Positions 22,985-40,555 of a stretch of 64,000 bases of DNA are shown here, piece by piece. Below the pieces are notes generated by a model. It saw nothing but the letters and a program-made list of their open reading frames with translations. It was not told the origin of the DNA and did not search any database. The stretch comes from Candidatus Poribacteria bacterium (GTDB lineage Bacteria; Poribacteria; WGA-4E; WGA-3G). A program made the translations under genes and the position numbers. Within the stretch, counting starts at the first letter, position 1, and each line of letters opens with the position of its first letter. The stretch covers positions 1,728,001-1,792,000 of the forward strand of contig CBDANF010000003.1 in assembly GCA_965197475.1 (NCBI GenBank), in the 5' to 3' direction.

Positions 22985-23563
22985 TTAGTTGATCGCGGCA
23001 GATTTAAGGTGCTTCCATCCCTCAATAAGTAAGGAAATACCGCGAATTAGACATGCTACGACAGTGGCTGTGGCGAGTATTAACCCGCCTTGCTTGATGG
23101 TAAGGTTTTCGGGAGCATAAAGGTGCATCCATGCAAGGTAAAGAAAAGTAAGCATTTTCATAGTCCCGTAGACAGCACGACTGATACGAGACCGCATGAG
23201 CGCGTGCGCGAGTCTACTTTTCGGTGGAGTTATGTAGTGTTGCAAGTTGTCTGTTAATATCCCACGTGTCATGACAACGAGGGGAATCCATAAGGGAAGA
23301 TATCCTGCCACAGTGAAGTAAACCCAGAAGACGATCTCGATAATTCTGTCTGCTCCTGTGTCAAGGATTGCGCCGAACTCGGATGTTTCGTTTCGTATGC
23401 GTGCCACAAAACCGTCAACCGCATCCAGCGTGAATATAAGCGCAATTGTTGCAATGCAGGCGATGTCTAAGTAGGGATGTTCTCCAAACATTGCAATGAC
23501 AAAAAAGGTTAAGAAAATGCGACAGAGGGTTATAGTGTTTGCTATCATGCCGGGTTTCGTCAC
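22985..23563 (-). CDS. CDP-alcohol phosphatidyltransferase family protein
   Basis: ANTITLCR and DAVDGFVAR...TSEFGAILDTGADR signature; overlaps the stop of the upstream STT3-like gene by 4 nt. Confidence 0.9.
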   Translation of the reverse strand: MTKPGMIANTITLCRIFLTFFVIAMFGEHPYLDIACIATIALIFTLDAVDGFVARIRNETSEFGAILDTGADRIIEIVFWVYFTVAGYLPLWIPLVVMTRGILTDNLQHYITPPKSRLAHALMRSRISRAVYGTMKMLTFLYLAWMHLYAPENLTIKQGGLILATATVVACLIRGISLLIEGWKHLKSAAIN

Positions 23564-25227
23564 TTTTTCGGCACTGCTGTTTCAAGATATTTCTCGTCTG
23601 TTTCTATATCGGGTGGGTATTGAATTTCCCAGAGTTTGATATGTGATGCGGCGAAGTCCGTTTTAGGAAACACGGGTTTAAAGCCTCTGTATCCAAAGGG
23701 GTTTTTATTTAGAAGGGAGTCATGTGGGTCGTCAGGTGTGACAAGGATGTGTGTCGCCTCGTGTGTTTTGAGGTATTCAAGTGCTTCGCGTTCGGTTTTG
23801 GCGTGGTGAACATGTTGATTGTAGAGGTATATCCAGTTCGGTAGATAATGGTCTTGATCGATGAGGGTTTTAACGTCAGCAAGCACGTTGAGTTGGCTAC
23901 CGAACCGCCAATGTGCGGCGACAACACCGTCTTTTAGATTGGTTTTGATCCATGCAAATGTATCGTTGAGTATGCCATGTCCGGGAATAGCGGTGCGCAT
24001 CTGTGTCGCAGCATAAAGTGAGAATCGGGCGTGTCCGCCTATTGGTGCCCAAAAGAGGATGAGGGCGAGTGCGATGGCTGCTGCAATTTTATTGGTTTGT
24101 GTGTTGTTAAGGAAATTTTCGACTGTCTCTGCAAGCATCTTGATGCCGAGTGCAGTAAAGATAAAGACACTACCGTATCTGCCCGTCCAAAAACTAAAAT
24201 AGGTGTTCTTGAGTTCAGAAACGGTGTGCATGAGTGGGGTGTTCATTAAGATTGTTGTTGTCTCAAAGTTTTTGAGTTGTGTGAAAAGGTAACCGAGTCC
24301 GATAGCGAGCATTAAGACTGTCAATCCGAGTGAAAGTTTTCGACTGTGGCTTTTTAACGTCTCTGCTGTCTGAGGGATTGTAATAAGCAACTGCCGTAAT
24401 GCACGGATTACCAAAATCGCTATCGGTGGCACAAGCACAAAGGTAGTCAAGTGTTCAGCAAAGCCCACGCCACTGCGATATGCAGGCGCGATGATGTAAA
24501 GCATAGGCACAAATGAACACACCCAAAGCAGGTAATACCATAAATCTGTTTCGCTTTCTGAAGTAAGAAACCGCCATATCTCTATTGTGTAAATGATGAG
24601 AAGGAATGCACCAAAGCCTTCCCAGGATAGTCCGCCGAGAAGCGTAAAGAAGCCACTAATAAGTGTTAAAACGGTCCGCTTACGTGAGTTTTGCGTTTGC
24701 AACGCGATCAAATAAAAAATGATGGCACTGATAGCGAGTAAAAGACACCAGCAGTCTCTATCACCGAAACCGACGGTGCTGCGCCCAATGGTGCCGGGCA
24801 GCGTTGCAATCAGGATGCCCGTGGTATTCGCCACGAACGCACCGAATGTGCTATAAAGGAAAAAACAGAGAACGCCTAACCCCAGCACAAAACAGACAGT
24901 CGGCATGTAGATACAAACATGATAGAGGGATACGTCTTTGAAAAAAAGATGTGCCACTTTATAGGTATAAGCAAGCATATAAGAATAGAGTGGTAACAAC
25001 AACCCGTTATCTCTACCAATCGGCATCCATCGGTGCATATCGCGGGGAGGTAGTTTTCCCTGTTGGACGATAGTGTTTGCCTGCCAATAGTAGAAGTATC
25101 CATCATTTTCAAGGAACTGTCCATCAGGGAGGGTTTCCGCGCTTTGAATGCGTATCCAAAAGGCGAGAAAGAGAATGCTGCTGAACAGGAGGAGCGAGAC
25201 GAGGTGTTTGAAAAGTGGGGTTTTCAT
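23560..25227 (-). CDS. STT3/AglB/PglB-like oligosaccharyltransferase homolog (GT-C fold)
   Basis: FLENDGYFYY, GFGDRD (DxD), TVSE (TIXE-like), AHWRFG (WWDYG position) and DQDH occur in the canonical order, with multiple TM segments. Confidence 0.75.
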   Translation of the reverse strand: MKTPLFKHLVSLLLFSSILFLAFWIRIQSAETLPDGQFLENDGYFYYWQANTIVQQGKLPPRDMHRWMPIGRDNGLLLPLYSYMLAYTYKVAHLFFKDVSLYHVCIYMPTVCFVLGLGVLCFFLYSTFGAFVANTTGILIATLPGTIGRSTVGFGDRDCWCLLLAISAIIFYLIALQTQNSRKRTVLTLISGFFTLLGGLSWEGFGAFLLIIYTIEIWRFLTSESETDLWYYLLWVCSFVPMLYIIAPAYRSGVGFAEHLTTFVLVPPIAILVIRALRQLLITIPQTAETLKSHSRKLSLGLTVLMLAIGLGYLFTQLKNFETTTILMNTPLMHTVSELKNTYFSFWTGRYGSVFIFTALGIKMLAETVENFLNNTQTNKIAAAIALALILFWAPIGGHARFSLYAATQMRTAIPGHGILNDTFAWIKTNLKDGVVAAHWRFGSQLNVLADVKTLIDQDHYLPNWIYLYNQHVHHAKTEREALEYLKTHEATHILVTPDDPHDSLLNKNPFGYRGFKPVFPKTDFAASHIKLWEIQYPPDIETDEKYLETAVPKK

Positions 25228-25299
25228 AAAAAACTATAAAGAAGGGAACCGGTTGTGACACCAGTTCCCCACTTATGCGTTAATACGCAAGTGTAAGGT

Positions 25300-26730
25300 T
25301 TAACGATATAGATCCGAATGATAGTCGCGAAGAGTTGTCAAACGTTCTCCCGAACAGATACCACGTTGCATGAGATAATTCTGACATTTCGTGAAAAGTT
25401 CACCACAAGGTTCCGTTATCGCCGTGCCATCAGCACGCCTGCCTATGATTATACTACGGATGCACGTATAGGTCGCACACGCAGTGTCTAAAATGCAGAT
25501 CGGATTGATACATGCTGTGGCGGTCGTGGTACAACCACCATTGGGTGGGGGTGTGTTGCATCCACCATTGGGTGGGGGCGTGTTACAGCCGCCGTTTGAA
25601 GGGGGCGTGTTACAGCCGCCGTTTGAAGGGGGCGTGCCGCCGCCGTTCTGACCACCTAACGCAAGATAGTTGCTGGTGCCTTGCCCCATACCAACGCCAC
25701 CACCATCGCCAGATTGTGAGCCGCTGCCATTGGGGTAGTTGTGCAGGTGAATACACTTAAAATAGCCATTAGGATCCGCATCGCAATCGATGGTGGAGCC
25801 GTTGATGGTAAGTGAAGCAGGGCAGGGCCCCGATACCCATTCTTCATGCCCATTCGGTGTGCAAGGTTTAAAATATATCCCACAAGCAATACAAGGGAAA
25901 GCAGGTCTATGTCTCAATTCTTCCGGTTGACAACTCCAATACGGATCACCGCACCCCTTGTAAGTGCCATCGTCCTCTGGACAGGTTTTACAATGATTGT
26001 TTGCTGTTGGCACAATCTCCGTGCAGCTTTCATGTGCACACGTTATAACTGGGGTATCGCTATAGGTGACAGTCCACGACGCATCTATCTGTTTTGTGAT
26101 GGGCGTTCGGGACCCTTCCCGCCAGTCTCCTCCAAATCGGATAGCAACCGGTGTTTTGCTCAGACTCAGTTGAAAGGTTGCATCCTGCTCCGTGAGGATT
26201 GCCGGCTTCGGGACGATGGTAGATGTCACATTCTTTTCGTGCGTGCCGGGATAAAACCTGCTTGTTTCGACAGGCGCATTTATATCGCCAGAACTGTAAC
26301 CGGCTTTGACACGGTAGCACGGGAAGACAACCTTTTGAAACCACTCTACTTCTTTGTTTTCTTCCGTCTGATACCACGGGACATAACCGAAGGTATACCA
26401 TCTTTTGCCCCAGTCACCAACCTTTCGAACGGTAGACGCGCCTTCGCTAAACGTAAATTCAATGTTTCCAAATCCTGTAGCGAAGATACTGGCGTAGTAG
26501 GAGGCATGCGTTGGTGGTTTTTGGGGTTCCCATGAACCTCCCACCAACTCGCCAGATTGATCTACCTTTCGTGTCAAATGATAAGAACTGCCACTTGCAG
26601 GACTTACAGAGTAGTCCGTTCCTGTTGTTATTAAGAACTCAACATCAGCACTCTCTGACACAGGGACTAAGATCAATGGTAGTGCCATTATGAACATAAA
26701 CGTAATTGTAACATAAAAATTAAGTCTCAT
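25300..26730 (-). CDS. Cassette 6 protein B (type I head): secreted Cys/His-rich protein
   Basis: RBS GGAGGA before MRLNF; signal peptide; 4x TPPxNGGC repeats; conserved Cys-rich tail. Confidence 0.85.
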   Translation of the reverse strand: MRLNFYVTITFMFIMALPLILVPVSESADVEFLITTGTDYSVSPASGSSYHLTRKVDQSGELVGGSWEPQKPPTHASYYASIFATGFGNIEFTFSEGASTVRKVGDWGKRWYTFGYVPWYQTEENKEVEWFQKVVFPCYRVKAGYSSGDINAPVETSRFYPGTHEKNVTSTIVPKPAILTEQDATFQLSLSKTPVAIRFGGDWREGSRTPITKQIDASWTVTYSDTPVITCAHESCTEIVPTANNHCKTCPEDDGTYKGCGDPYWSCQPEELRHRPAFPCIACGIYFKPCTPNGHEEWVSGPCPASLTINGSTIDCDADPNGYFKCIHLHNYPNGSGSQSGDGGGVGMGQGTSNYLALGGQNGGGTPPSNGGCNTPPSNGGCNTPPPNGGCNTPPPNGGCTTTATACINPICILDTACATYTCIRSIIIGRRADGTAITEPCGELFTKCQNYLMQRGICSGERLTTLRDYHSDLYR

Positions 26731-26731
26731 T

Positions 26732-27664
26732 CTAATATCCTCCATCAATTATAGGTATTGGGACAGGTCGATCATTCGACTGTTGTAGCGTATGTTCTAA
26801 ACCGAATTTGCGGTAGACTTCTCTTATTGCCTCTTCTCTTTTTCTATCCTTTGCCTCTCTGGAGCTCGGGTCTCCACTATAGAGTCCACCATCTATAAGC
26901 GGCACGGGCCCTTGGGCCGCTGCGATCAGCGTTTCGATTTGTGCTGAGATGCGATTCCATTCAGCAGTATCCCCTCGGCGTTGTGCTTTTGCAAGTTCTG
27001 CTTGGAACGCCTCATGCTGTTCCCACTGTTCGAGGGTGGGGGCGAACCCTACTCCATCTTTATAGAAGATAGTGACGGTATTATCATAGTGTCTTAGTGT
27101 TTCCCCGTTGTGGTTCCGCATGTGCTGCCAGTTTGCACCGATAGGGGGCGGGTCTTCTCCCCATTCTTTACGATACGCCTCTAACCTTTTCCGTTCCTCT
27201 CTATAAGTCTCATAGAAAAGTTGTTTAGTGGCATCATCCATTTTTGAGAACCTCTCAACACATTCTTCTGGCGACATTTCCAAGAAATCCAAAAACTCCT
27301 TTTCAGGATAACTCAGTTTTGAAAATACCTCTTTGAGTTGCTCTGGTGACATTTTCAACCAACTCACAGTTTCTGTCGGCTGTGTTGATTTATCCTTCGG
27401 CACTGTCCGATGCCAATGATCACCATGCCAATATCCTGTTTCCCGAGATTCGCCCGGAGGCGGTGGTCTGACACCAGGCTCAGGCGTGTTTACTTCCTGT
27501 GGTGAACCCTTTGGCTTAGGTCCGTCTTCCAAAAGTTTTTTGGTTGCATCACCTAATACCATTTCCGACTCAGTGTCAGTATCCCGCGGTATCAGTAAGA
27601 ACACACCCGCAATTCCAATCAGTAGCATGAGGATTGCAAGTCCCCATATCATCTGCTTTTTCAT
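26732..27664 (-). CDS. Cassette 6 protein A (type I): N-terminally anchored protein
   Basis: MKKQMIW TM anchor, PPPPG, WHGDHWH, GFAPT and YRKFGLEH motifs. Confidence 0.85.
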   Translation of the reverse strand: MKKQMIWGLAILMLLIGIAGVFLLIPRDTDTESEMVLGDATKKLLEDGPKPKGSPQEVNTPEPGVRPPPPGESRETGYWHGDHWHRTVPKDKSTQPTETVSWLKMSPEQLKEVFSKLSYPEKEFLDFLEMSPEECVERFSKMDDATKQLFYETYREERKRLEAYRKEWGEDPPPIGANWQHMRNHNGETLRHYDNTVTIFYKDGVGFAPTLEQWEQHEAFQAELAKAQRRGDTAEWNRISAQIETLIAAAQGPVPLIDGGLYSGDPSSREAKDRKREEAIREVYRKFGLEHTLQQSNDRPVPIPIIDGGY

Positions 27665-27692
27665 AAGGATTCTCCTTATCTTTCATTTGCCT

Positions 27693-27857
27693 TTATTTCG
27701 CTGCGTCCAGCGTGCAAGGCGGTTTGTTTTGTTCCATACAAGCGGGGATTTCTGCCTGCGTAGCATCAATCATTTTGATTGTGCCAAAGAGCAGTCCGCC
27801 ACCCATAATAACAATAAGTGCCACGGTCAGTCCTATTTTTAAAAATTTCGTTTTCAC
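27693..27857 (-). CDS. Cassette 6 small two-Cys peptide (54 aa)
   Basis: GTG start after AGGAGGT; MKTKFLKIGLTVALIVIMGGGLLFGTIKMIDATQAEIPACMEQNKPPCTLDAAK. Below the ORF-track cutoff. Confidence 0.75.
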   Translation of the reverse strand: MKTKFLKIGLTVALIVIMGGGLLFGTIKMIDATQAEIPACMEQNKPPCTLDAAK

Positions 27858-27963
27858 AAATTATACACCTCCTTTCAAAATTAGTCAAAAAGACCGACCA
27901 AACGATGACAACTGTAAATCAAAACATCAGTATGAAATACCTTTCATAATTAAAGACACAGTT

Positions 27964-28146
27964 TTAGACCGAAAAGGGTGCATACGATATAAAAAAATGA
28001 ATTTTGTCTAAAGATTTGGTAAAACTACCGCTTGCGCTCCTCACTTCGCGAAAGTTTTTCACACTATCCTGTATCCGAAAGCACAGAAAGAGAATGCTGA
28101 TGAGCAATAGGAGCGGGAGGATTTGTTTGAAAAGTGGGGTTTTCAT
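27964..28146 (-). pseudogene. 5' fragment of STT3-like gene fused to linker
   Basis: MKTPLFKQILPLLLLISILFLCFRIQ resembles the first ~27 aa of 23560-25227, then reads into linker sequence. Confidence 0.75.
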
Positions 28147-28157
28147 AATAAACTATA

Positions 28158-28193
28158 AAGTGGGGAACCGGTTGCGACACCGGTTCCCCACTT
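28158..28193. terminator. Conserved cassette hairpin (terminator-like or processing site)
   Basis: 15-bp perfect stem AAGTGGGGAACCGGT/ACCGGTTCCCCACTT; copies at ~25239, 30835, 35157 and 37876. Confidence 0.6.
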
Positions 28194-28218
28194 ATGCGTT
28201 AATACGCAAGTGTAAGGT

Positions 28219-29517
28219 TTAACGATATAGATCCGAATGATAGTCGCGAAGAGTTGTCAAACGTTCTCCCGAACAGATACCACGTTGCATGAGAAGATTC
28301 TGACATTGCGTGAAAAGTTCACCACAAGGTTCCGTTATCGCCGTGCCATCAGCACGCCTGCCTATGATTATACTACGGATGCACGTATAGGTCGCACACG
28401 CAGTGTTTCTAATGCAGATCGGGTTGATGCACGCTGTGGCGATTGTGGTACAGCCACCATTTGCCGGGGGCGTGTTACAGCCGCCGTTTGAAGGGGGCGT
28501 GCCGCCGCCGTTCTGACCACCTAACGCAAGATAGTTGCTGGTGCCTTGCCCCATGCCAACGCCGCCGCCATTGCCTTGTTGTCCACCACCATTACCTTGT
28601 TGACCGCCGCCATTGCCGCTACCACTACCGCTACTTGGGAACTGGTGGATATGCGACGGATCACACCTATAAAAACCTTTTACAGTACAATAAACATTTC
28701 CTCCATCCTGGGTGATGTTAACGGGGCAATTAACTTGCCATGCATGTGCATATGCTTCACTTGGATCAATAATGTGAATGCCGCACTCACCCCGGATTTT
28801 ATCGTTAATCGTGACGGAGTAACTTCCATTGTAAGGATCCGCATTAACGTCACGAGTGATGCCTGCCTCCCATTTCCAATATGTTGACTCCCCAATAACA
28901 AAACTGAGTGATGCGCTTGGCGTTGTACTTGCTTGTGCAGTAAGTGCCTTTTGTTTGCTTTTGTATGTCACAATACTACGTGAACGAGACTGGACAACAC
29001 CAGTAGCTGATACATTGACGGTAGTAGGACTGATTTCCTCGGCAGTCCCAATTTCGTCGGTATTATAAAGCCCGTTCATTTCTTTTATTCTAAAAGAGTA
29101 AACCTCCCTCTCTGCTTTTTTCAGGGGCTCAGAGGCCCAATTGCCAATGGGATAATCCCGTGTCTTTTTCTTAAGGGTAAAAGCAATTTCGCCGTATCCG
29201 GTGGCATTAACCATAATCGTTATGTAGTGAAAGTCTCCAGGTTTGGTAGGTTCCCAATCTTCCTCAAGAATAAGGCTACCAAAATAACTCCCTTGAGCTG
29301 CAAGGGAATAAATCACTCGTTCCCCATGGTAATTTGTTTTATTTCCTGGAGTTGATATAATTACCGGATTAGAGACGTATAATCCGTTAGAATCCATATC
29401 CGAGCGGTCTTCTGCCCAGAGTTCATTACGAATCCAGAAAAAAGAAGCATTTATGTCAATATGAAAAGCAAAAAATGTGAAAAAGATGACGCATATCCAT
29501 AGTCGCTGATTTTTCAT
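28219..29517 (-). CDS. Cassette 5 protein B (type II head)
   Basis: Signal peptide; EDRSDMDSNGLY head shared with cassette 2; 2x TPPxNGGC; conserved tail. Confidence 0.85.
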   Translation of the reverse strand: MKNQRLWICVIFFTFFAFHIDINASFFWIRNELWAEDRSDMDSNGLYVSNPVIISTPGNKTNYHGERVIYSLAAQGSYFGSLILEEDWEPTKPGDFHYITIMVNATGYGEIAFTLKKKTRDYPIGNWASEPLKKAEREVYSFRIKEMNGLYNTDEIGTAEEISPTTVNVSATGVVQSRSRSIVTYKSKQKALTAQASTTPSASLSFVIGESTYWKWEAGITRDVNADPYNGSYSVTINDKIRGECGIHIIDPSEAYAHAWQVNCPVNITQDGGNVYCTVKGFYRCDPSHIHQFPSSGSGSGNGGGQQGNGGGQQGNGGGVGMGQGTSNYLALGGQNGGGTPPSNGGCNTPPANGGCTTIATACINPICIRNTACATYTCIRSIIIGRRADGTAITEPCGELFTQCQNLLMQRGICSGERLTTLRDYHSDLYR

Positions 29518-29535
29518 AAGTAGTCTCCTTTTATT

Positions 29536-30333
29536 TTAATAGGAATGTTTTTCCTTGTAAAGTTCATATAGATGTTCAACGCCCAAGCGTTGATAGAGCT
29601 CTAAAACCGCTTTATTATCAAGTTTTATCTGATTCTCTATAGGAATTGGATCTCCATAATACCCAAAACCGGTAGGATCAGGGACCTCCCCTTGTGATGA
29701 GTCAACAAGAGTTTGAATCTCGCTTCTAATACGTTGTATCTCCGCTAAGGTATCACCGGAATATAACTCGCCATTTTTGAGATCTGATAATTTATCTTTC
29801 AAGGCTGCACGTAATTGCTTGTATTGTTGCAACTGTACAGGCATCGGTGCGAAACCTGTTTTTAAATCATAATGAGACACGACAACTGTATTTCTATAAT
29901 GCCGAACGACGTTTCCGTGATTATCACGAAAGTGTTGATATGAACCGTCTGGCGATGGGTCTTCTCCCCATTTAGCTCTATATTCCGCGAGTTGCTGCTC
30001 CCGGAGTGCTTTGACCCTTGCCTTAATTTCTGCTTCAGAAAGTTCAGGCAGTGTTTGCAGAGTTGTAGCGGTATCCGCGGGTGCCGCATGCGGTTCTTCG
30101 TGCCAAACACCATCGTGCCAGTGTCCGTTAGGTGATACACCGGGCGGTGGTGGTTTGCCCGCTTCTTGTGCAGACACCTGTTGCTTTGGTCCGTCCTCCA
30201 AAAGTTTTTTGGTTGCCTCACCTAATACCAGTTTCGACTCAGTGTCGGTATCCTGCGGCATCAGTAAGAAAACACCAGCAATTCCAATCAGTAGCATGAG
30301 GATTGCAAGTCCCCATATCATCTGCTTTTTCAT
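29536..30333 (-). CDS. Cassette 5 protein A (type II)
   Basis: MKKQMIW anchor; GHWHDGVWHEEPH; KWGEDPSPDGSYQHFRDNHG shared with cassette 2. Confidence 0.85.
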   Translation of the reverse strand: MKKQMIWGLAILMLLIGIAGVFLLMPQDTDTESKLVLGEATKKLLEDGPKQQVSAQEAGKPPPPGVSPNGHWHDGVWHEEPHAAPADTATTLQTLPELSEAEIKARVKALREQQLAEYRAKWGEDPSPDGSYQHFRDNHGNVVRHYRNTVVVSHYDLKTGFAPMPVQLQQYKQLRAALKDKLSDLKNGELYSGDTLAEIQRIRSEIQTLVDSSQGEVPDPTGFGYYGDPIPIENQIKLDNKAVLELYQRLGVEHLYELYKEKHSY

Positions 30334-30361
30334 AAGGATTCTCCTTATCTTTCATTTGCCT

Positions 30362-30529
30362 TTATTTCGCTGCGTCCAGCGTGCAAGGCGTTTTGTTTTG
30401 TTCCATACAAGCGGGGATTCCTGCCTGCGTAGCATCAATCATTTTGATTGTGCCAAAGAACAGCCCTCCACCCATAAAAACAATCAGTGCCGTGGTCAGT
30501 CCTATCTTTCGCCACCGTTGCTTTTTCAC
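30362..30529 (-). CDS. Cassette 5 small two-Cys peptide (55 aa, variant b)
   Basis: GTG start after AGGATG; MKKQRWRKIGLTTALIVFMGGGLFFG...IPACMEQNKTPCTLDAAK. Confidence 0.75.
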   Translation of the reverse strand: MKKQRWRKIGLTTALIVFMGGGLFFGTIKMIDATQAGIPACMEQNKTPCTLDAAK

Positions 30530-30634
30530 AATTATATACATCCTTTCAAAATTAGTCAAAAAGACCGACCAAACGATGACAACTGTAAATCAAAACATCA
30601 GTATGAAATACCTTTCATAATTAAAGACACAGTT

Positions 30635-30823
30635 TTAGACCGAAAAGTGTGCATACGATATAAAAAAATGAATTTTGTCTAAAGATTTGGTAAAACTACC
30701 GCTTGCGCTCCTCACTTCGCGAAAGTTTTTCACACTATCCTGTATCCGTATCCAAAAGGCGAGAAATAGGATACTGATGAGCAATAGGAGCGGGAGGATT
30801 TGTTTGAAAAGCGGGGTTTTCAT
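30635..30823 (-). pseudogene. 5' fragment of STT3-like gene fused to linker
   Basis: MKTPLFKQILPLLLLISILFLAFWIRIQ followed by linker-derived DSVKNF. Confidence 0.75.
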
Positions 30824-30895
30824 AATAAACTATAAAGTGGGGAACCGGTTGCGACACCGGTTCCCCACTTATGCGTTAATACGCAAGTGTAAGGT

Positions 30896-32326
30896 TTAAC
30901 GATATAGATCCGAATGATAGTCGCGAAGAGTTGTCAAACGTTCTCCTGAACAGATACCACGTTGCATGAGAAGATTCTGACATTGCGTGAAAAGTTCACC
31001 ACAAGGTTCCGTTATCGCCGTGCCATCAGCACGCCTGCCTATGATTATACTACGGATGCACGTATAGGTCGCACACGCAGTGTTTCTAATGCAGATCGGG
31101 TTGATGCACGCTGTGGCGATTGTGGTACAGCCACCATTTGCCGGGGGTGTGGTGCAGCCACCATTTGCCGGGGGTGTGGTGCAGCCACCATTTGCCGGGG
31201 GCGTGTTACAGCCGCCGTTTGAAGGGGGCGTGCCGCCGCCGTTCTGACCACCTAACGCAAGATAGTTGCTGGTGCCTTGCCCCATACCAACGCCACCACC
31301 ATCGCCAGATTGTGAGCCGCTGCCATTGGGATAGTTGTGCAGGTGAATACACTTAAAATAGCCATTAGGATCCGCATCGCAATCGATGGTGGAGCCGTTG
31401 ATGGTAAGTGAAGCAGGGCAGGACCCCGATACCCATTCTTCATGTCCTTCTGGGGTGCACGGTTTAAAATCTATCCCACAGATTACACAAGGCCAAGATT
31501 TATGACGGGACGCATCTGGTTGACATGTCCCGTAAGAATCGCCACATCCTTTTGGTGTGCCGTTTACATTACAAGGTACATAGTGCTGCTCCGCTGTTTG
31601 AACTATCTCGGTGCACGCATTATGCTTACAAGAAATCACATTCGTATCACTATAAGTGACATTCCATTGAGCATTTATCTGCCTTGGAATGGGACTACGG
31701 GAGTCCATACGCCAACCTGAACCAAGTCGGAGTGCTGCACTCGGTGATTTACCGATCGTGATTTGGTATGTGCTTGAAATACCAACCAGCACTGCAGGCT
31801 TCGGGACCATGGTAGACGTTACATTCTTTACATGCGGTGTGCCTGTATAAATACGACTTGTGTCTACAGGTGCCGTTATGTCGCCAGGGTGATGTCCTGC
31901 TTCAATACGCCAGCAAGGAAAAACTATTGGTTGAGACCATTCTACTTCTTTATTTTCTTCCGTTTCATACCATGTTGTCAAACCAAGGGTCAATGCACTA
32001 TTGCCCCAGTCACCCACTTTTTTTGTGTGTGACGAACCTTCGCTAAATGTAAAAGCAATCTTACCTAACCCTGACGCGATGATGCTTGCCGTGTAAAAGG
32101 CACGATCGGGAGGTTTAGTCGGATTGTATGTTCCTCCGACAAGTGCTCCGTATTGATCTATTTTACGGGTTAAGTGATAATTGGTGCCACTTGCTGGCGA
32201 CACAGAGTAATCTGTTCCCCATGTTGTGAAGTATTCTGTCTCGTGAGGCATTGCATGAACATGAACTGCTGTAATAAAAAAGAGTGTAAAACTGAGTGTT
32301 ATCGCAACATAAAAATATCTTCTCAT
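30896..32326 (-). CDS. Cassette 4 protein B (type I head)
   Basis: GTDYSVSPASG head shared with cassette 6; 4x TPPxNGGC; conserved tail. Confidence 0.85.
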   Translation of the reverse strand: MRRYFYVAITLSFTLFFITAVHVHAMPHETEYFTTWGTDYSVSPASGTNYHLTRKIDQYGALVGGTYNPTKPPDRAFYTASIIASGLGKIAFTFSEGSSHTKKVGDWGNSALTLGLTTWYETEENKEVEWSQPIVFPCWRIEAGHHPGDITAPVDTSRIYTGTPHVKNVTSTMVPKPAVLVGISSTYQITIGKSPSAALRLGSGWRMDSRSPIPRQINAQWNVTYSDTNVISCKHNACTEIVQTAEQHYVPCNVNGTPKGCGDSYGTCQPDASRHKSWPCVICGIDFKPCTPEGHEEWVSGSCPASLTINGSTIDCDADPNGYFKCIHLHNYPNGSGSQSGDGGGVGMGQGTSNYLALGGQNGGGTPPSNGGCNTPPANGGCTTPPANGGCTTPPANGGCTTIATACINPICIRNTACATYTCIRSIIIGRRADGTAITEPCGELFTQCQNLLMQRGICSGERLTTLRDYHSDLYR

Positions 32327-32356
32327 TCTAAAATCCTCCTTGTTTTGGTATAGGTT

Positions 32357-33163
32357 CTATTCTACTACTTCAGGTATAATATCAGATTGGTAAAGTCTCT
32401 TTAGACGATGTTCTAAACCGAATTTACGGTAGACTTCTCTAATTGCTTCTTCTCGTTGTCTATGTGCTTCCTCCTCAGAAATAGGATCACCACTATAGAG
32501 AGTGCCCGTTATTACAGGAGCAGGACCCCGGGATTTTGCTATTAACACCTTGAGTTCCGCTAATATCCGATCATATTCTGCAGTGTCACCACTACGCCTG
32601 GCTTCAACAAGTTTTCTTTGTAAAATTTCGTGTTGTTCCCATTGTTCTGGTGTTGGTGCAAACCCATCATTGACAACTTTATAGAAGGTGGTGGTACTAT
32701 TATCGTAGTGTTTTATTACTTCTCCGTTGTCATTACGCATATGCTCCCAGTTGGCACCGATGAGTGGGGGATCAACCCCCCATTCCTTACGATATGCTTC
32801 TATTTCTTCTGGCGAGCGGGGTTGCCCAATCAATTCCGGCATCGGCACGAATTCGGGGAGGGTGTCATCCATCCTGTGTGTCGTGTCCGGTGTGCCTTTA
32901 TTATCAGGCGAATCGTTTTTATGCCAATGCCCCTCGTGCCAATATCCCATTTCTTTGGTTTCACCGGGCGGCGGCGGCCTATTAGCATCCGTCAGGGCCG
33001 GATCATTGTGTTGCTTTTGACGATCTTCCAAAAGTTTTTTGGTTGCCTCACCTAATACCATTTCCGACTCAGTGTCGGTGTCCTGCGGTATCAGTAAGAA
33101 CACACCAGCAATTCCAATCAGTAGCATGAGGATTGCAAGTCCCCATATCATCTGCTTTTTCAT
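32357..33163 (-). CDS. Cassette 4 protein A (type I)
   Basis: MKKQMIW anchor; WHEGHWH; EAYRKEWG.DPP.IGANW.HMRN shared with cassette 6. Confidence 0.85.
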   Translation of the reverse strand: MKKQMIWGLAILMLLIGIAGVFLLIPQDTDTESEMVLGEATKKLLEDRQKQHNDPALTDANRPPPPGETKEMGYWHEGHWHKNDSPDNKGTPDTTHRMDDTLPEFVPMPELIGQPRSPEEIEAYRKEWGVDPPLIGANWEHMRNDNGEVIKHYDNSTTTFYKVVNDGFAPTPEQWEQHEILQRKLVEARRSGDTAEYDRILAELKVLIAKSRGPAPVITGTLYSGDPISEEEAHRQREEAIREVYRKFGLEHRLKRLYQSDIIPEVVE

Positions 33164-33191
33164 AAGGATTCTCCTTATCTTTCATTTGCCT

Positions 33192-33311
33192 TTATTTCGC
33201 CGTGTCCAGCGAGCAAGGCATTTTGTTTTGTTCCATACAAGCGGGGTTTTCTGTCTGTGTAGCATCAATCATTTTGATTGTGCCAAAGAGCAGTCCGCCA
33301 CCCATAATAAC
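33192..33311 (-). pseudogene. 5'-truncated small peptide of cassette 4
   Basis: Only (VI)MGGGLLFG...NPACMEQNKMPCSLDTAK remains; homology stops at the TIR at 33312. Confidence 0.7.
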
Positions 33312-33324
33312 CAGGACTTACGCA
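33312..33324. mobile_element. Isolated MITE/IS terminal inverted repeat CAGGACTTACGCA
   Basis: Identical to the 13-bp TIR of the MITE at 41490-41611; lies exactly at the cassette breakpoint. Confidence 0.7.
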
Positions 33325-33437
33325 ATAATCTACAATTATGTTATACTGTTCTATTATGACTACATTTACACTTTCTAAAAAGAAGCACCACTTATTTTCT
33401 GATTATTGTCAATTTTTGTTAGCGAGTTTCACTAATT

Positions 33438-33767
33438 TTACACAAACCTATTTTGCAAACTATACGGAGAAACCGATCGATTGTCGTTTGCTATCCTGAC
33501 AGGGGCGAACTTGCATTCTGCAAAACCGAGACCTTTGACACCCGCCTCAAGAATAACATTAATCTCCCGATCATCTGTAGACCATTCTTCATTGCCTTCC
33601 TGATCTGTGTATTTGGTCATTACATTCTGATAACTTCTTGAATCGGAAGTAGACCCGATCGTAGGATCTGAGGTAAAACCTATTTCAGCGATTGCATGGT
33701 AAATAAAACAGGCAAAGATTCCAAGAACAAGGCACCCGATTAGCAAAAGGTTTCTATACGTTTTCAT
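33438..33767 (-). pseudogene. Cassette 3 protein B, 3'-truncated (type III head)
   Basis: Occupies the B position with RBS AAGGAG and a signal peptide, but has only 109 aa and no Cys-rich tail. Confidence 0.7.
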
Positions 33768-33802
33768 TAAAAACTCCTTGGGAATGTGTATTCTCTTTAT
33801 TG

Positions 33803-34663
33803 TTATCTATATTTTTCGGGGATGAGGTAATCAAACCCCGCTTTTCTATATTCTGCGTAAAGCACTTCTTTTTGTATCCGCATTGCGCGCTGGAGGAGCG
33901 CATCTGCGTGTGCATCTGTTGTTGTTGGGTGAGATAGAGAAACAACAAGATCAGGGATATTTCTATAGCATGCCTGACGGAACGCCTTGAGTTCAGCATT
34001 GATACGTTCCGCTTCAGCAGTCTGTCCCCATCCGTGCGCTTGGGTATACTCACGTTGCATTTCTTTATAACGTTCGTATTCTTCGCGTGTGGGTGCGAAT
34101 CCGATTTCGGTTACAACCCTAAAATAGGGTTCATAGTCTTTGTGTAAAATAGGATTACCGTTTTCATCCAGATCTAGCAACCCCTTTGTGTCTCGGAGAC
34201 GAATAGAGTATCCGGAGGGTGTATCTAGAAATCCGAAATTGTTCAGATCCTGAACCCGGACATTTATTCGTTCTTCTAGAGAAAGTTTCGTCCAGGCTTC
34301 AGGTAAAGTGCCGAAGGATTTCTGGAAAGGGATGTGACGGTCAGGATACGGTTCGTTTGATTGAGGTGCCGTCGGGAGCTCAACAGATGTCTTTCCCGGA
34401 ACGGTTCTGTGCCAACGGTCACCGTCCCAATGTCCTGTTTCGTGGGTTTCACCGGGTGGGGGTGGTCTGATACCAGGCTCAGGCGTGTTTGCTTCCTGCG
34501 GCGAGCCTTTTGGATTAGGTCCGTTCTCCAAAAGCTTTTTGGTTGCCTCACCTAATACCATTTCCGACTCAGTATCAGTATCCCGCGGTATCAGTAAGAA
34601 CACACCAGCAATTCCAATCAGTAGCATGAGGATTGCAAGTCCCCATATCATCTGCTTTTTCAT
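33803..34663 (-). CDS. Cassette 3 protein A (type III)
   Basis: MKKQMIW anchor; GHWDGDRWH; GFAPT; YRKAGFDYL. Confidence 0.85.
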   Translation of the reverse strand: MKKQMIWGLAILMLLIGIAGVFLLIPRDTDTESEMVLGEATKKLLENGPNPKGSPQEANTPEPGIRPPPPGETHETGHWDGDRWHRTVPGKTSVELPTAPQSNEPYPDRHIPFQKSFGTLPEAWTKLSLEERINVRVQDLNNFGFLDTPSGYSIRLRDTKGLLDLDENGNPILHKDYEPYFRVVTEIGFAPTREEYERYKEMQREYTQAHGWGQTAEAERINAELKAFRQACYRNIPDLVVSLSHPTTTDAHADALLQRAMRIQKEVLYAEYRKAGFDYLIPEKYR

Positions 34664-34691
34664 AAGGATTCTCCTTATCTTTCATTTGCCT

Positions 34692-34856
34692 TTATTTCAC
34701 TGCGTCCAGCGTGCAAGGCGTTTTGTTTTGTTCCATACAAGCGGGGATTTCTGCCTGCGTAGCATCAATCATCTTGATTGTGCCAAAGAGCAGTCCGCCA
34801 CCCATAATAACAATAAGTGCCACGGTCAGTCCTATTTTTAAAAATTTCGTTTTCAC
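34692..34856 (-). CDS. Cassette 3 small two-Cys peptide (54 aa, variant a)
   Basis: GTG after AGGAGGT; near-identical to 27693-27857. Confidence 0.75.
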   Translation of the reverse strand: MKTKFLKIGLTVALIVIMGGGLLFGTIKMIDATQAEIPACMEQNKTPCTLDAVK

Positions 34857-34962
34857 AAATTATACACCTCCTTTCAAAATTAGTCAAAAAGACCGACCAA
34901 ACGATGACAACTGTAAATCAAAACATCAGTATGAAATACCTTTCATAATTAAAGACACAGTT

Positions 34963-35145
34963 TTAGACCGAAAAGGGTGCATACGATATAAAAAAATGAA
35001 TTTTGTCTAAAGATTTGGTAAAACCACCGCTTGCGCTCCTCACTTCGCGAAAGTTTTTCACACTATCCTGTATCCAAAAGGCGAGAAAGAGAATGCTGCT
35101 GAACAGGAGGAGCGAGACGAGATGTTTGAAAAGTGGGGTTTTCAT
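34963..35145 (-). pseudogene. 5' fragment of STT3-like gene fused to linker
   Basis: MKTPLFKHLVSLLLFSSILFLAFWI is identical to the start of the full-length gene. Confidence 0.78.
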
Positions 35146-35216
35146 AAAAAACTATAAAGAGGGGAACCGGTACTATAACCGGTTCCCTCTTATGTGTTAA
35201 TACGCAGGTGTAAGGT

Positions 35217-36593
35217 TTAATAAAATTCATCCGAATGGTAGTCATAAGCAGTTGTCTTACGTTCTCCTGAACAGATACCACGTTGCATGAGATAATTCTG
35301 ACATTTCGTGAAGAGTTCACCACAAGGTTCCGTTATCACCGTGCCATCAGCACGCCTGCCTATGATTATACTACGGATGCACGTATAGGTCGCACACGCA
35401 GTGTCTAAAATGCAGATCGGATTGATACATGCTGTGGCGGTCGTGGTACAACCACCATTGGGTGGGGGTGTGTTGCATCCACCATTGGGTGGGGGCGTGT
35501 TACAGCCGCCGTTTGAAGGGGGCGTGTTACAGCCGCCGTTTGAAGGGGGCGTGCCGCCGCCGTTCTGACCACCTAACGCAAGATAGTTGCTGGTGCCTTG
35601 CCCCATGCCAACGCCGCCGCCATTGCCCTGTTGTCCACCACCATCGCCTTGTTGACCGTCGCCATTGCCGCTACCACTACCGCTACTTGGGAACTGGTGG
35701 ATATGCGACGGATCACACCTATAAAAACCTTTTACAGTACAATAAACATTTCCTCCATCCTGGGTGATGTTAACGGGGCAATTAACTTGCCATGCATGTG
35801 CATATGCTTCACTTGGATCAATAATGTGAATGCCGCACTCACCCCGGATTTTATCGTTAATCGTGACGGAGTAACTTCCATTGTAAGGATCCGCATCAAC
35901 GTCACGAGGTATACCTGCCTCCCATTTCCAATATGATGACTCTCCAATAATGAAGCCAATTCCCGCGCCTGAGCTCCCCGCTTGCGCAGTTATTGCGCTC
36001 TGTTCGCTTCCGTATGTCACAATTCTCCGAGATTGTGTCGTGGCTTTACCTGTAGCATATATAGAAACAGTCGTAGGACTAATCTGAGCGGCATCATAAG
36101 CAGGTAGGTTGGGATTAACAACGCCATTAGGTTTTTTTCTACGGAAGGTGTAAACTTCACGTTCCGCTTTTTGTATCGGTTCTGAAGTCCAATGACCGAT
36201 GGAAAAATCCTCTGTCTCTCCGTTGAGCGTAAAAGCAACTTCGCCGTACCCGGTAGCACTGATGGATATCTTTAGGTAGTGATAGTTTTCGGGCTTGTAA
36301 GGTGTCCACGATTCCGAAAGTATAAAAGATACCGGAAGGTTGGGATCGGTGATGGTTCGTTCTCCATGCATATTCAAACCATTCATAGGAGTTGTCTGAA
36401 TTACCGGTTTAGAAGCGTATAAACCACTCGATTCCATATCTGCACGATTTTCTTCCCACCATAGCCGTGCTTCCCATGATTCAATGAAGTCAGGCGGCAT
36501 ATAATAGAGCATGCGGGCTAACGCGGTTGTGCTAATGCAAAAAACTAAAAACACTAAACAGCAAAGAAGAATCATATACTGTTTGTTTTTCAT
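35217..36593 (-). CDS. Cassette 2 protein B (type II head)
   Basis: Likely start MKNKQY (RBS AGGAGA at 36601-36606); EENRADMESSGLY head; 4x TPPxNGGC; conserved tail. Confidence 0.85.
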   Translation of the reverse strand: MKNKQYMILLCCLVFLVFCISTTALARMLYYMPPDFIESWEARLWWEENRADMESSGLYASKPVIQTTPMNGLNMHGERTITDPNLPVSFILSESWTPYKPENYHYLKISISATGYGEVAFTLNGETEDFSIGHWTSEPIQKAEREVYTFRRKKPNGVVNPNLPAYDAAQISPTTVSIYATGKATTQSRRIVTYGSEQSAITAQAGSSGAGIGFIIGESSYWKWEAGIPRDVDADPYNGSYSVTINDKIRGECGIHIIDPSEAYAHAWQVNCPVNITQDGGNVYCTVKGFYRCDPSHIHQFPSSGSGSGNGDGQQGDGGGQQGNGGGVGMGQGTSNYLALGGQNGGGTPPSNGGCNTPPSNGGCNTPPPNGGCNTPPPNGGCTTTATACINPICILDTACATYTCIRSIIIGRRADGTVITEPCGELFTKCQNYLMQRGICSGERKTTAYDYHSDEFY

Positions 36594-36606
36594 GAGTCTA
36601 TCTCCT

Positions 36607-37374
36607 TTAGTAACTACGTTCCCCGTAGAGTTCGTAGAGGTGTTCAACGCCCATGTGCTGATAGAAAGATTGTAACGCTTCGTTATGAAGATTTCTCTCC
36701 TGCTCTCCAGAAATTGGGTCTCCATAATATCTAAAACCAACAGGATCTGGGATTTCACCTTGGGCAGCGTTAACAAGTGATCGAATCTCGTCGTCAAGAC
36801 GTTGCATCTCCGAGATGTTTTCTTTTGATGCAGCGTCTTTCATGGCGGCACGTAGTTGCTTGTAGCGTTTCAATTCTGCGGGTGTCGGTGCAAAATCTAC
36901 TTTTAGATCGTAGCGGGATACAGCAATCGTTCCTCTATAATGCCGATGGACATTTCCGTGATTATCACGAAAGTGTTGATATGAACCGTCTGGCGATGGG
37001 TCTTCTCCCCATTTATCTCGATATTCCGCGAGTTGCTGCTCCCGGAGTGCTTTGACCCTTGCCTTAATTTCTGCTTCAGAAAGTTTAGATAGTGTTTGCG
37101 GAGCTGTGGTGGTATCCGCGGGTGCCGCATGCGGTTCTTCGTGCCAAACGCCATCGTGCCAGTGTCCGTTAGGTGATGCACCGGGCGGTGGTGGTTTGCC
37201 CGCTTCTTGTGCAGACACCTGTTGCTTTGGTCCGTCCTCCAAAGGTTTTTTGGTTGCCTCACCTAATACCAGTTTCGACTCAGTGTCGGTATCCTGCGGC
37301 ATCAGTAAGAAAACACCAGCAATTCCAATCAGTAGCATGAGGATTGCAAGTCCCCATATCATCTGCTTTTTCAT
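36607..37374 (-). CDS. Cassette 2 protein A (type II)
   Basis: Near-identical to cassette 5 protein A over the N-terminal ~140 aa. Confidence 0.85.
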   Translation of the reverse strand: MKKQMIWGLAILMLLIGIAGVFLLMPQDTDTESKLVLGEATKKPLEDGPKQQVSAQEAGKPPPPGASPNGHWHDGVWHEEPHAAPADTTTAPQTLSKLSEAEIKARVKALREQQLAEYRDKWGEDPSPDGSYQHFRDNHGNVHRHYRGTIAVSRYDLKVDFAPTPAELKRYKQLRAAMKDAASKENISEMQRLDDEIRSLVNAAQGEIPDPVGFRYYGDPISGEQERNLHNEALQSFYQHMGVEHLYELYGERSY

Positions 37375-37402
37375 AAGGATTCTCCTTATCTTTCATTTGC
37401 CT

Positions 37403-37570
37403 TTATTTCGCTGCGTCCAGCGTGCAAGGCGTTTTGTTTTGTTCCATACAAGCGGGGATTCCTGCCTGCGTAGCATCAATCATTTTGATTGTGCCAAAGA
37501 ACAGCCCTCCACCCATAAAAACAATCAGTGCCGTGGTCAGTCCTATCTTTCGCCACCGTTGCTTTTTCAC
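37403..37570 (-). CDS. Cassette 2 small two-Cys peptide (55 aa, variant b)
   Basis: Same protein as 30362-30529. Confidence 0.75.
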   Translation of the reverse strand: MKKQRWRKIGLTTALIVFMGGGLFFGTIKMIDATQAGIPACMEQNKTPCTLDAAK

Positions 37571-37675
37571 AATTATATACATCCTTTCAAAATTAGTCAA
37601 AAAGACCGACCAAACGATGACAACTGTAAATCAAAACATCAGTATGAAATACCTTTCATAATTAAAGACACAGTT

Positions 37676-37864
37676 TTAGACCGAAAAGTGTGCATACGAT
37701 ATAAAAAAATGAATTTTGTCTAAAGATTTGGTAAAACTACCGCTTGCGCTCCTCACTTCGCGAAAGTTTTTCACACTATCCTGTATCCGTATCCAAAAGG
37801 CGAGAAATAGGATACTGATGAGCAATAGGAGCGGGAGGATTTGTTTGAAAAGCGGGGTTTTCAT
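37676..37864 (-). pseudogene. 5' fragment of STT3-like gene fused to linker
   Basis: Same translation as 30635-30823. Confidence 0.75.
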
Positions 37865-37936
37865 AATAAACTATAAAGAGGGGAACCGGTTGCGACACCG
37901 GTTCCCCACTTATGCGTTAATACGCAGGTGTAAGGT

Positions 37937-39301
37937 TTAACGATATAGATCCGAATGATAGTCGCGAAGAGTTGTCAAACGTTCTCCCGAACAGATACCA
38001 CGTTGCATGAGAAGATTCTGACATTTCGTGAAAAGTTCACCACAAGGTCTTGTCACCCACGAACCATCATTTCTCTGGCTTACTTTTATCCTACGGATGC
38101 ACGTATAGGTCGCACACGCAGTGTCTAAAATGCAGATCGGATTGATACATGCTGTGGCGGTCGTGGTGCAACCACCATTTGATGGAGGTGTGCCACCGCC
38201 ACCATTACCCGCGTTCGCTTCAAGCGCATCGGTACACTCACTGCAAGTGCCACTAATTCTCGCGCAGGTCGCGCAGGTTCCACCACCATTGCCGGGGTTC
38301 TGCCCTATGCCACCACCATTGCCTTGTTGACCGCCACCATTGCCTTGTTGCGATCCACTACCAAATTGGTGCGTGTGATACACGCACTGGTAAAACCATT
38401 CCACAGTGCAAGTAAAACCGTTTTCATCTGTTTTGGAGCAACTTTCTTCAAAAACATGATTACCGGGATGCTTAAAACACGGATATGTATCCAGACATCC
38501 GTAGCATACGGTGTAATGCTCGTGGAGGTCATCCCGTAATGTAGACTTGCATATCCAGCATTGCAACTCTTCTGCATAGGACCAGCTCCCCGATTTGCTA
38601 GTGCTATCATGGGCACTAAATGTCCACATATCATCTGAAATCTCCGTTGTTATTGATCTTCCATTAGATAGTGTGACTGTGTGAGAGATACCTGGTTCAA
38701 AGCCAACAGACACTGTAGACTCTGAACCGTATTCCGTTGAGACAGTCACCGAGGAGGTGCCTTTCCATCTGACATTAGCGATTCTGACAGTCCCTGCCCC
38801 CGACCATGTGCCGCCTTTTTTCTCTGGAACATAAGCCCATCGCGACCAATAAAAAACAGCTGAGTCCGATTCGGCATAAGCTGTTCCATCTTCAATACCA
38901 TCATTTACGTTGATGTTTACACCCCAAGATCCGATCTCAGCGACGCGAGAAGCTCCGTTATAGTCAACCAGTGGTTCACCATTGATTGTCGCGGAATCAA
39001 TGGTGAACTGCGCCTCACCATACCCGTATAATGCGGCATTAAGCCTTACCTCTGCAATGCTAGGCATTAGTCCCGGAGTTCTTGTTACGGCATGTTCTCC
39101 ACCATAACTACATGGCGTAGACGTCGCTGCAAAATCTGGTATGCAATGGTATGCATACGTATAGTTTTCTGCCATGTTAGAGTCAACGAAACAGGGAGTA
39201 CCACTGTCATCAAAATTCAAAGTCGTTCTTCCACCGAATGAACTTTGTGGTAATATGAAAAAAATACTAAGCGTTATTGTCAAAAATAGTTTATTAAACA
39301 T
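37937..39301 (-). CDS. Cassette 1 protein B (type IV head)
   Basis: Signal peptide, unique head, Cys/His-rich middle (CWIC, CYGC, CATC), 1x TPPSNGGC and conserved tail. Start 39301 or 39307. Confidence 0.85.
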   Translation of the reverse strand: MFNKLFLTITLSIFFILPQSSFGGRTTLNFDDSGTPCFVDSNMAENYTYAYHCIPDFAATSTPCSYGGEHAVTRTPGLMPSIAEVRLNAALYGYGEAQFTIDSATINGEPLVDYNGASRVAEIGSWGVNINVNDGIEDGTAYAESDSAVFYWSRWAYVPEKKGGTWSGAGTVRIANVRWKGTSSVTVSTEYGSESTVSVGFEPGISHTVTLSNGRSITTEISDDMWTFSAHDSTSKSGSWSYAEELQCWICKSTLRDDLHEHYTVCYGCLDTYPCFKHPGNHVFEESCSKTDENGFTCTVEWFYQCVYHTHQFGSGSQQGNGGGQQGNGGGIGQNPGNGGGTCATCARISGTCSECTDALEANAGNGGGGTPPSNGGCTTTATACINPICILDTACATYTCIRRIKVSQRNDGSWVTRPCGELFTKCQNLLMQRGICSGERLTTLRDYHSDLYR

Positions 39302-39315
39302 TATCAAATCTCCTT

Positions 39316-40203: not shown

Positions 40204-40231
40204 AAGGATTCTCCTTATCTTTCATTTGCCT

Positions 40232-40396: not shown

Positions 40397-40482
40397 ATTA
40401 TACACCTCCTTCCAAAATTTATCAACTAAAACTAAACAAATGGCAGGGTTGTTTAGTTTTAAGTTTGTTCATTTAGTCGAAA

Positions 40483-40547: not shown

Positions 40548-40555
40548 AGAATAAA

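Follow-up and report, generated by a model that had tools for sequence, protein, structure and literature searches.

A tandem array of S-A-B gene units in Candidatus Poribacteria whose shared ends have probably been overwritten patchwise by homologous recombination

Paralogous surface-protein genes of bacteria can undergo concerted evolution by gene conversion, as is the case for the opa genes of Neisseria and the bab/sab outer-membrane protein genes of Helicobacter pylori. In the cassette systems of antigenic variation (Neisseria pilE/pilS, Borrelia vlsE and Anaplasma msp2), one expression site is accompanied by promoterless, truncated silent cassettes. Here we describe a tandem array of three-gene units, S-A-B, in a stretch of 64,000 nucleotides from a Candidatus Poribacteria bacterium (assembly GCA_965197475.1, contig CBDANF010000003.1, positions 1,728,001 to 1,792,000 of the forward strand), which we call the window. 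The array probably arose from one amplified S-A-B unit whose shared ends were overwritten patchwise by homologous recombination, a process that would have uncoupled the head of the B proteins from their tail. It resembles the cassette systems in that related cassettes form an array in which segmental conversion leads to new combinations in an exported protein, export being predicted in our case. In contrast to those systems, however, a promoter-like site precedes five of the six units, terminators follow five intact B genes, and only B3 is truncated. Because the units have promoter-like sites and terminators of their own, the array does not follow the design of an expression site with silent cassettes.

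The array lies on the minus strand and consists of six tandem units between a gene for an extracytoplasmic function (ECF)-type sigma factor (41203..40556) and a gene for an STT3-like glycosyltransferase (25227..23560). The order within a unit is a promoter-like site, S, A, B, a terminator-like hairpin, a copy of the start of the STT3-like gene and a spacer. The promoter-like site, which was found upstream of units 1, 2, 3, 5 and 6, is sigma-70-like (TTGACT/TTGATA-17-TATAAT, 11 of 12 positions matching). S consists of about 55 codons, encodes one hydrophobic helix with two cysteines near the end, and lies upstream of every A gene; it was also found in the single-copy locus of another genome, G017 (L010 8627..8839, 70 amino acids). 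An earlier sequence-only reading of this DNA, which our analysis followed up, had an A/B scheme from which S was absent. Gene A encodes 255-310 amino acids with an N-terminal membrane helix, and gene B 432-476 amino acids with a hydrophobic N-terminus that, judged by eye, is signal-peptide-like.

The sequence-only reading had proposed that the B proteins display all four combinations of two heads and two tails. Protein alignment bore this out: B6 has head I and tail X, B4 head I and tail Y, B5 head II and tail Y, and B2 head II and tail X. The motifs ILDTAC and TKCQNYL and the TPPP repeats that define tail X are on B6 and B2, whereas IRNTAC, TQCQNLL and the TPPA repeats of tail Y are on B4 and B5. 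The shared GGGVGMGQGTSNYLALGGQNGGG block is present, and the switch between head and tail does fall there, no informative site being found within it. Heads of the same type were also seen, as had been described, to be diverged at the N-terminus and near-identical just upstream of the block; identity rises abruptly at ~35936 for B2/B5 (from 0.56-0.75 to 0.95-1.00) and at ~31450 for B4/B6 (from 0.54-0.66 to 0.98-1.00). The tails are more varied than two types. That of B1 is itself mosaic, with an X-like ILDTAC, a diverged middle, and TKCQN followed by LL, a mixed end. Tail X of B2 differs from that of B6 in its last 13 residues, which together with the terminator constitute a third type; 13 singletons of B2 fall within the final 65 gene columns, and others lie in the 3′ flank.

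The nucleotide sites sort in the same way. All 62 informative sites in the last 111 aligned head columns supported the split (B2,B5|B4,B6) and none supported another. The next 143 columns held no informative site; 89 were invariant and 54 were gapped because B5 has two, not four, repeats of 27 nt. In the part coding for the tail, 15 of 15 informative sites supported (B2,B6|B4,B5), with no site for the head split and two singletons, and ten further sites with the tail grouping lie in the 3′ flank. Five sites at the distal end of the STT3 copy, however, revert to the head-type grouping, and B5 switches partner there; therefore the flank is a patchwork as well. Head-type and tail-type sites are clustered along the genes with none interleaved, and B4 and B5 are identical over 190 tail columns. 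In a permutation test of neighbouring-site compatibility of the pairwise homoplasy index (PHI) type, none of 2000 shuffles of site order gave a value as low as that observed, and the Hudson-Kaplan (four-gamete) minimum number of recombination events was at least 4 for the four genes and at least 5 when B1 was included. By these site patterns and the PHI-type test, one duplication tree without breakpoints cannot explain the sites. The exchange in B6 maps to 25547..25689 on the minus strand, with 25690 as the last head-type site and 25546 as the first tail-type one, and the equivalent minus-strand intervals are 31143..31285 in B4, 28466..28554 in B5 and 35464..35606 in B2.

The mosaicism is not restricted to the B genes or to a single switch point. 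Units 2 and 5 are 98-100% identical across ~750 nt comprising the spacer, the promoter, S and the start of A, whereas in the remainder of A and as far as two thirds of the way into the B head identity is 0.34-0.75, and units 4 and 6 show the same pattern. Sliding identity between units of the same type changes in steps and not in gradients, and units 1 and 6 have only the two ends in common. A patchwork is seen in the 5′ module, which consists of the promoter-like site, S and the initial 200-400 nt of A; in the tail and the 3′ end of each head; and also in the terminator and the copy of the STT3 start. The ends of the tracts vary among pairs, lying at ~35936, ~31450 and ~38206 on the 3′ side of the units and at ~37000, ~40030 and ~33070 on the 5′ side. 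Such differences between pairs fit homologous rather than site-specific recombination.

Synonymous divergence (pS, Nei-Gojobori) separates the two parts of the unit further. In the cores it is 0.44-0.92, mostly saturated, with omega mostly 0.1-0.7, whereas pS is 0.00-0.04 in the flanks next to them within these genes; residues 236-315 of B2 and B5 contain no synonymous difference in ~50 synonymous sites. These values indicate that the heads are old paralogues under purifying selection and that the flanks were recently homogenised. Proteins from other assemblies point in the same direction. The core of B2 is 79% identical to P0010 of another assembly but 52% identical to that of B5, B6 is 69% identical to P0003/P0004 but 56% identical to B4, and B4 is 66% identical to P0005. 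Conversely, the five tails in the window are 77-100% alike mutually and 57-63% identical to the tail of P0010. Since the heads are closer to proteins of other assemblies and the tails are closest within the genome, the comparison argues for gene conversion among old paralogues and not for recent duplication. On this evidence the heads are not recent duplicates, the recent part being the homogenisation of the flanks, and the pattern is that of concerted evolution by gene conversion. The earlier suggestion of recombination or gene conversion rather than simple duplication is thus supported twice, by the failure of a single tree across the head-end and tail sites and by synonymous divergence that falls from saturation to about zero within genes.

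Recombinants were also found outside the window. P0007, a protein of 510 amino acids from another assembly, is the intact form of B3, and its tail begins with repeats of type X, continues with a core of type Y and finishes with the end type that is otherwise seen only in B2. When it is compared with B2, B4/B5 and B6, tail cores and tail ends occur in all four pairings within a stretch of ~60 codons. Recombination in the B family is therefore real, whatever the detailed arrangement of the array. Similarly, the cluster representative P0024 resembles A2 in its residues up to 143 and A5 in those from 148 onwards. P0003, P0004, P0005 and P0043 are stand-alone versions of head I (327-362 amino acids) that end just after a C-x-H-x-H-N-F-P motif and have neither linker repeats nor tail, whereas in P0013 and P0046 a linker of the same kind is followed by another type of Cys-rich tail. 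The occurrence of the same heads with different tails or none identifies the glycine-rich linker as a general joint of the family.

The family is small. A profile of the B tail found it in 4 of 159 genomes of the order, and more than one copy was present only in this genome, with five, all in the window; the expansion to six units was likewise unique among these 159. The relative's genome G017 has a single set consisting of sigma, S, A, B, the STT3-like gene, an AglJ-like GT2 glycosyltransferase (TIGR04182, 1.3e-44, 152.8 bits, below the cut-off of 325) and a methyltransferase. In G078 and G013, genomes of two further relatives that each have a single copy of B, an A-sized open reading frame (ORF) is followed by a tail-bearing B ORF and the STT3-like gene, and sigma and S were not confirmed there. 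B had 13 matches among 5.8 billion clustered proteins, five of which were the window's own, and 15 among 1.84 billion representatives. A had 29 matches, and the only two with source names are both hypothetical proteins of Candidatus Poribacteria. A scan of JGI metagenomes with the tail profile gave 223 pattern matches, none of which was confirmed. Papers on Poribacteria together with gene conversion are unrelated to this locus by their titles and the opening parts of their abstracts, and none was found on Poribacteria together with STT3.

We propose the following model. A single S-A-B unit located between the ECF sigma gene and the STT3-like gene would have been amplified into six copies. The copy of the STT3 start that follows every B gene shows that the amplified segment began with the spacer and stopped shortly after entering the STT3-like gene. 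An old, type-specific core, comprising the 3′ part of A and most of the B head, forms the middle of each unit. All units have in common a 5′ end (promoter, S and the start of A) and a 3′ end that runs from the last part of the head through the glycine-rich linker, the 27-nt TPPxNGGC repeats and the Cys-rich tail to the terminator and the STT3-start copy. General homologous recombination between these common ends, including non-reciprocal gene conversion, would repeatedly overwrite patches, while unequal crossing-over would alter the number of repeats and would have removed most of B3. Tracts that begin or end in the invariant block coding for GMGQGTSNYLALGGQNGGGTPPSNGGC would uncouple head type from tail type and so give rise to the four combinations. 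We infer that the process is RecA-type conversion rather than a site-specific one. The mechanism, gene conversion and unequal crossing-over among tandem paralogues, is known; the locus and the S/A/B gene family are undescribed and restricted to this lineage.

Several observations weigh against this model. Three public runs from one study hold the region, and we compared them with it as k-mer contigs. Contigs with no mismatch cover each core (25797-27488, 28815-29941, 31393-33056, 35867-36982 and 38357-40027), but all of them end at the shared modules, so that the linkage of head to tail rests on one assembly. The contamination estimate of the genome is 6.97%, which makes strain mixing possible. 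No recombinase gene was noticed in the array, where no detailed search aimed at recombination genes or signals was made. The first two observations bear on the possibility that the arrangement is an assembly artefact, in which strains with uniform tails were merged and the haplotype was switched inside near-identical modules, so that no chromosome would hold the four combinations. The runs do contain variants. At 33470/33471 the contigs from runs X1 and X2 depart from the window and continue B3 with other sequence; this is a credible variant within the population, so that an intact B3 probably exists alongside the deleted one in the bacteria that were sampled. A contig found in runs X2 and X3 joins 31175 to 38163, placing the start of a Y-type tail behind the B1 linker; its sides are 21-22 nt, of which 19 nt are shared, and it is at most a hint of an alternative B1 tail in another strain, or else an artefact of the repeats. 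Identical stretches of 550 nt and more between units could also have misled an assembler, and the order of the tails (X-like, X, deleted, Y, Y, X) could be produced by one or two switches. However, sites specific to head and to tail are only ~90-145 nt apart, a distance easily spanned by one read on any platform, and each of the two clean haplotypes, X and Y, occurs twice. Because of these two observations we consider an artefact unlikely. Moreover, mis-polishing would blur 15 linked sites rather than sort them, and P0007, from another assembly, shows a recombinant tail.

Programmed variation would be a second explanation. The conserved ends would then be dedicated recombination handles for high-frequency shuffling of heads and tails, as in the cassette systems of pathogens. 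The modular design with its sharp borders, the heads that look exported by their hydrophobic N-termini, the confinement of the expansion to this one genome among the 159 searched, and the variation among runs at B3 and possibly at the B1 tail are what such a system would display. We nevertheless regard it as quite unlikely. Five of the six units have their own 11/12 promoter-like site and the five intact B genes have their own terminators, which leaves no single expression site to be fed by silent copies, and no gene for a recombinase or a reverse transcriptase was noticed in the array. The variable tract ends are those predicted for general recombination, and the cores are under purifying selection. 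Finally, it is very improbable that no recombination occurred and that purifying selection after simple duplication kept the tails and 5′ ends alike while the heads diverged fast, for although the tail protein is conserved across genomes (44 invariant columns at the protein level among six tails including that of G017), selection on protein would leave synonymous differences of which the flanks have next to none compared with the cores, it does not explain why spacers, terminators and a non-functional gene fragment are 95-100% alike or why head and tail sites group incompatibly, and an omega below 1 in the heads is not that of fast adaptive divergence.

The recombination model therefore remains our preferred reading, and the individual cassettes, all on the minus strand, are described with it in mind. 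Cassette 1 (37937..40425) has its promoter-like site at 40425..40397, S1 at 40405..40232, A1 at 40203..39316 and B1, with head III and the mosaic tail, at 39307..37937. Cassette 2 (35217..37600) consists of a promoter-like site (37600..37572), S2 (~37570..37403), A2 (37374..36607) and B2 (36593..35217), the last with head II and tail X except for its distinct last 13 residues. In cassette 5 (28219..30559) the same elements lie at 30559..30531, ~30529..30362 (S5), 30333..29536 (A5) and 29517..28219 (B5), B5 having head II, tail Y and two repeats of 27 nt. Cassette 6 (25300..27888) is made up of the promoter-like site at 27888..27860, S6 at ~27857..27693, A6 at 27664..26732 and B6 at 26730..25300, with head I and tail X; the B6 product, of 476 amino acids, is P0001. 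The remaining two cassettes are joined by a deletion. Cassette 3 (33438..34887) retains a promoter-like site (34887..34859), S3 (~34856..34692), A3 (34663..33803) and a B3 remnant (33767..33438), of which just the first 99 codons remain, the deletion beginning at 33471; 98 of these 99 residues are identical to the N-terminus of P0007. The deletion extends into unit 4 and takes its promoter-like site and the start of S4 with it. Thus cassette 4 (30896..33317) begins with a 5′-truncated S4 (33317..33192) and continues with A4 (33163..32357) and B4 (32326..30896), with head I and tail Y.

A strong terminator-like hairpin followed by T residues lies after B6 (25243..25270, minus strand), and copies of it follow B5 (28158..28193), B4 (30835..30870), B2 (35162..35187) and B1 (37880..37907) on the same strand. 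After B5 the initial ~76 nt of the STT3-like gene are repeated (28071..28146, minus strand), as found by alignment, by repeat families D2/D3 and by the BLAST end points 25152/28071, and similar minus-strand copies follow B4 (~30748..30823), B2 (~35070..35144) and B1 (~37789..37864). The spacer between cassettes, of 236 nt (family D5), is present on the minus strand at 27859..28094, 30530..30765, 34858..35093 and 37571..37806 in copies that are 95-98% alike; in the whole genome these are the only full copies, and two 60-nt pieces lie elsewhere. Two plus-strand ORFs of 223 amino acids each (30011-30682 and 37052-37723) run antisense to the 5′ module of unit 5 and of unit 2, respectively. Their likeness comes only from the homogenised DNA in which they lie, and most likely they are not genes. 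An element of ~30 nt (TGTAGGAGCGAC...) occurs twice between the sigma gene and S1, at 40479-40513 and 40525-40555. Contig depth at this spot is ~260-350, compared with ~7-60 nearby, with many different loose ends, and the element resembles a short repeat scattered over this genome or those of relatives. We also considered an invertase or a diversity-generating retroelement and set this aside, no such gene being noticed among the scanned ORFs, which did not include every small one.

The gene at the head of the array (40556..41203, minus strand) matched Pfam Sigma70_r4_2 (2.3e-13) and Sigma70_r2 (4.9e-09) as well as NCBIfam TIGR02937 (2.6e-21, 75.9 bits against a cut-off of 42.9). Its only domains are sigma-70 regions 2 and 4, as the ECF class requires, and its position is conserved in G017. 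The STT3-like gene that closes the array (23560..25227, minus strand) encodes a GT-C glycosyltransferase by its match to Pfam PF02516 (2.1e-17, 64.2 bits, cut-off 24.5) and lies 3′ of B in all four genomes that have the B tail. Further out, WD40, ankyrin, sulfatase and Ser/Thr kinase genes are distributed around the array (10988-13288, 44854-46140, 48554-49579, 18127-19596 and 61796-63781). Gene content of this kind is often reported for sponge-associated Poribacteria, and it agrees with the source names of the A homologues. The window also contains a pair of paralogous DUF6785/DUF6784 proteins (24-887 and 19718-21685) and two Rieske-domain proteins of ~580 amino acids (43111-44847 and 46331-48079) with an ankyrin gene between them.

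What the A and B proteins do can be approached only from their sequences and surroundings. B has many cysteines, repeats rich in Thr, Pro and Asn, and a signal-peptide-like start, and we infer that it is an exported protein, possibly glycosylated by the neighbouring STT3-like enzyme. A would be a membrane-anchored, type-specific partner of B, its variable C-terminal domain travelling with the B head in the unconverted core, and all cassettes would be expressed. This functional reading was suggested by the signal-peptide-like starts, the many cysteines and the constant GT-C neighbour, to which a polyprenyl-phosphate sugar transferase is added in G017. Other results speak against it. Neither A nor B matched any model in Pfam or NCBIfam, and a structure model of B6 from a 16-row alignment had a mean predicted local distance difference test (pLDDT) score of 36, which makes it useless. 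The STT3-like protein reached 61 bits with NCBIfam TIGR04154, the cut-off being 450, so that it falls short of the full-length model, and its translation does not contain the string WWDYG, the motif of the STT3 soluble domain. It has 555 amino acids compared with 663-681 in G017, G078 and G013, and by BLASTP ~106 residues (357-462 of the G017 protein, with several predicted membrane helices) are missing in frame. Because these residues of the G017 orthologue are missing, the enzyme may be impaired and may not work.

Structural searches added little. Look-alikes of B6 in the ESM Atlas gave no usable match, and a comparison of the B profile with the PDB by sequence gave nothing credible (best E 0.075). 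The model of A6 reached a mean pLDDT of 77. It had no match in the PDB by Foldseek at E ≤ 0.001, and the best hit in a wide VIA-align search (Z 7.5) covered a helical hairpin only, within the stated background of that tool. A complex of A6 (residues 64-300) and B6 (24-336) was predicted with a median score of 0.53 (0.53, 0.00 and 0.62 in individual runs), the best of three controls being 0.00; with a partner pLDDT of at least 35 and a run agreement of at least 0%, this was graded 'weak support' and was not counted as evidence. The mark for this score was reached by 116 of 157 solved complexes and by 2 of 215 mismatches, and a score of 0.60 or under was obtained for 18 of the 157 and for both of the passing mismatches.

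If these pieces are put together, one can imagine a combinatorial surface-protein locus of a sponge-symbiont lineage, although we consider it doubtful. An orphan exported B, possibly glycosylated by a non-canonical STT3-like enzyme, would be presented with a type-matched membrane partner A. The promoter/S/A-start and linker/tail modules would serve as recombination handles, through which populations would continually re-assort heads, partners and tails and would lose and regain cassettes such as B3. Such a locus would vary what the cell presents to its host or to phages. Should the B genes encode glycoproteins of the cell surface, an uncultured symbiont would here have a repertoire of surface variants built into its genome, of which there are few examples. 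Irrespective of function, the combination of old cores with young flanks offers a clean natural case for measuring the lengths of conversion tracts. It also carries a warning for annotation, as identity over whole genes misdates paralogues of this kind and short-read assemblies of such a locus are not to be trusted.

Among the other systems with which the array can be compared, polymorphic toxin and Rhs arrays likewise consist of related genes in tandem that recombine as modules at a conserved joint, each unit having a small partner gene. In the B proteins, however, it is the N-terminal part that varies and the C-terminal part that is conserved, and the partner gene lies upstream. Scans against Pfam and NCBIfam matched none of the array proteins to a toxin or immunity family. 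Because the polarity is reversed and no toxin family was matched, we do not regard the locus as a polymorphic toxin array. The glycosylation loci of STT3 enzymes, namely archaeal AglB/AglJ with the S-layer glycoprotein and bacterial PglB, are resembled in that the STT3-like gene adjoins B wherever the B tail was found, that an AglJ-like GT2 gene is present in G017, and that B, with its Thr/Pro/Asn-rich repeats and signal-peptide-like starts, is a candidate substrate. The window's STT3-like protein differs from these enzymes in scoring far under the NCBIfam cut-offs, in having no WWDYG string and in the missing segment.

The array shares several features with the opa and bab/sab genes. There as here, complete and individually promoted paralogues have homogenised ends and distinct variable parts, the genes are mosaics in which segments give discordant trees, and the ends of the tracts vary. 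The array differs from them in forming one tight tandem series of three-gene units that encode an undescribed protein family, in that the partner A is likewise converted at its 5′ end, and in that no phase-variation repeats were seen.

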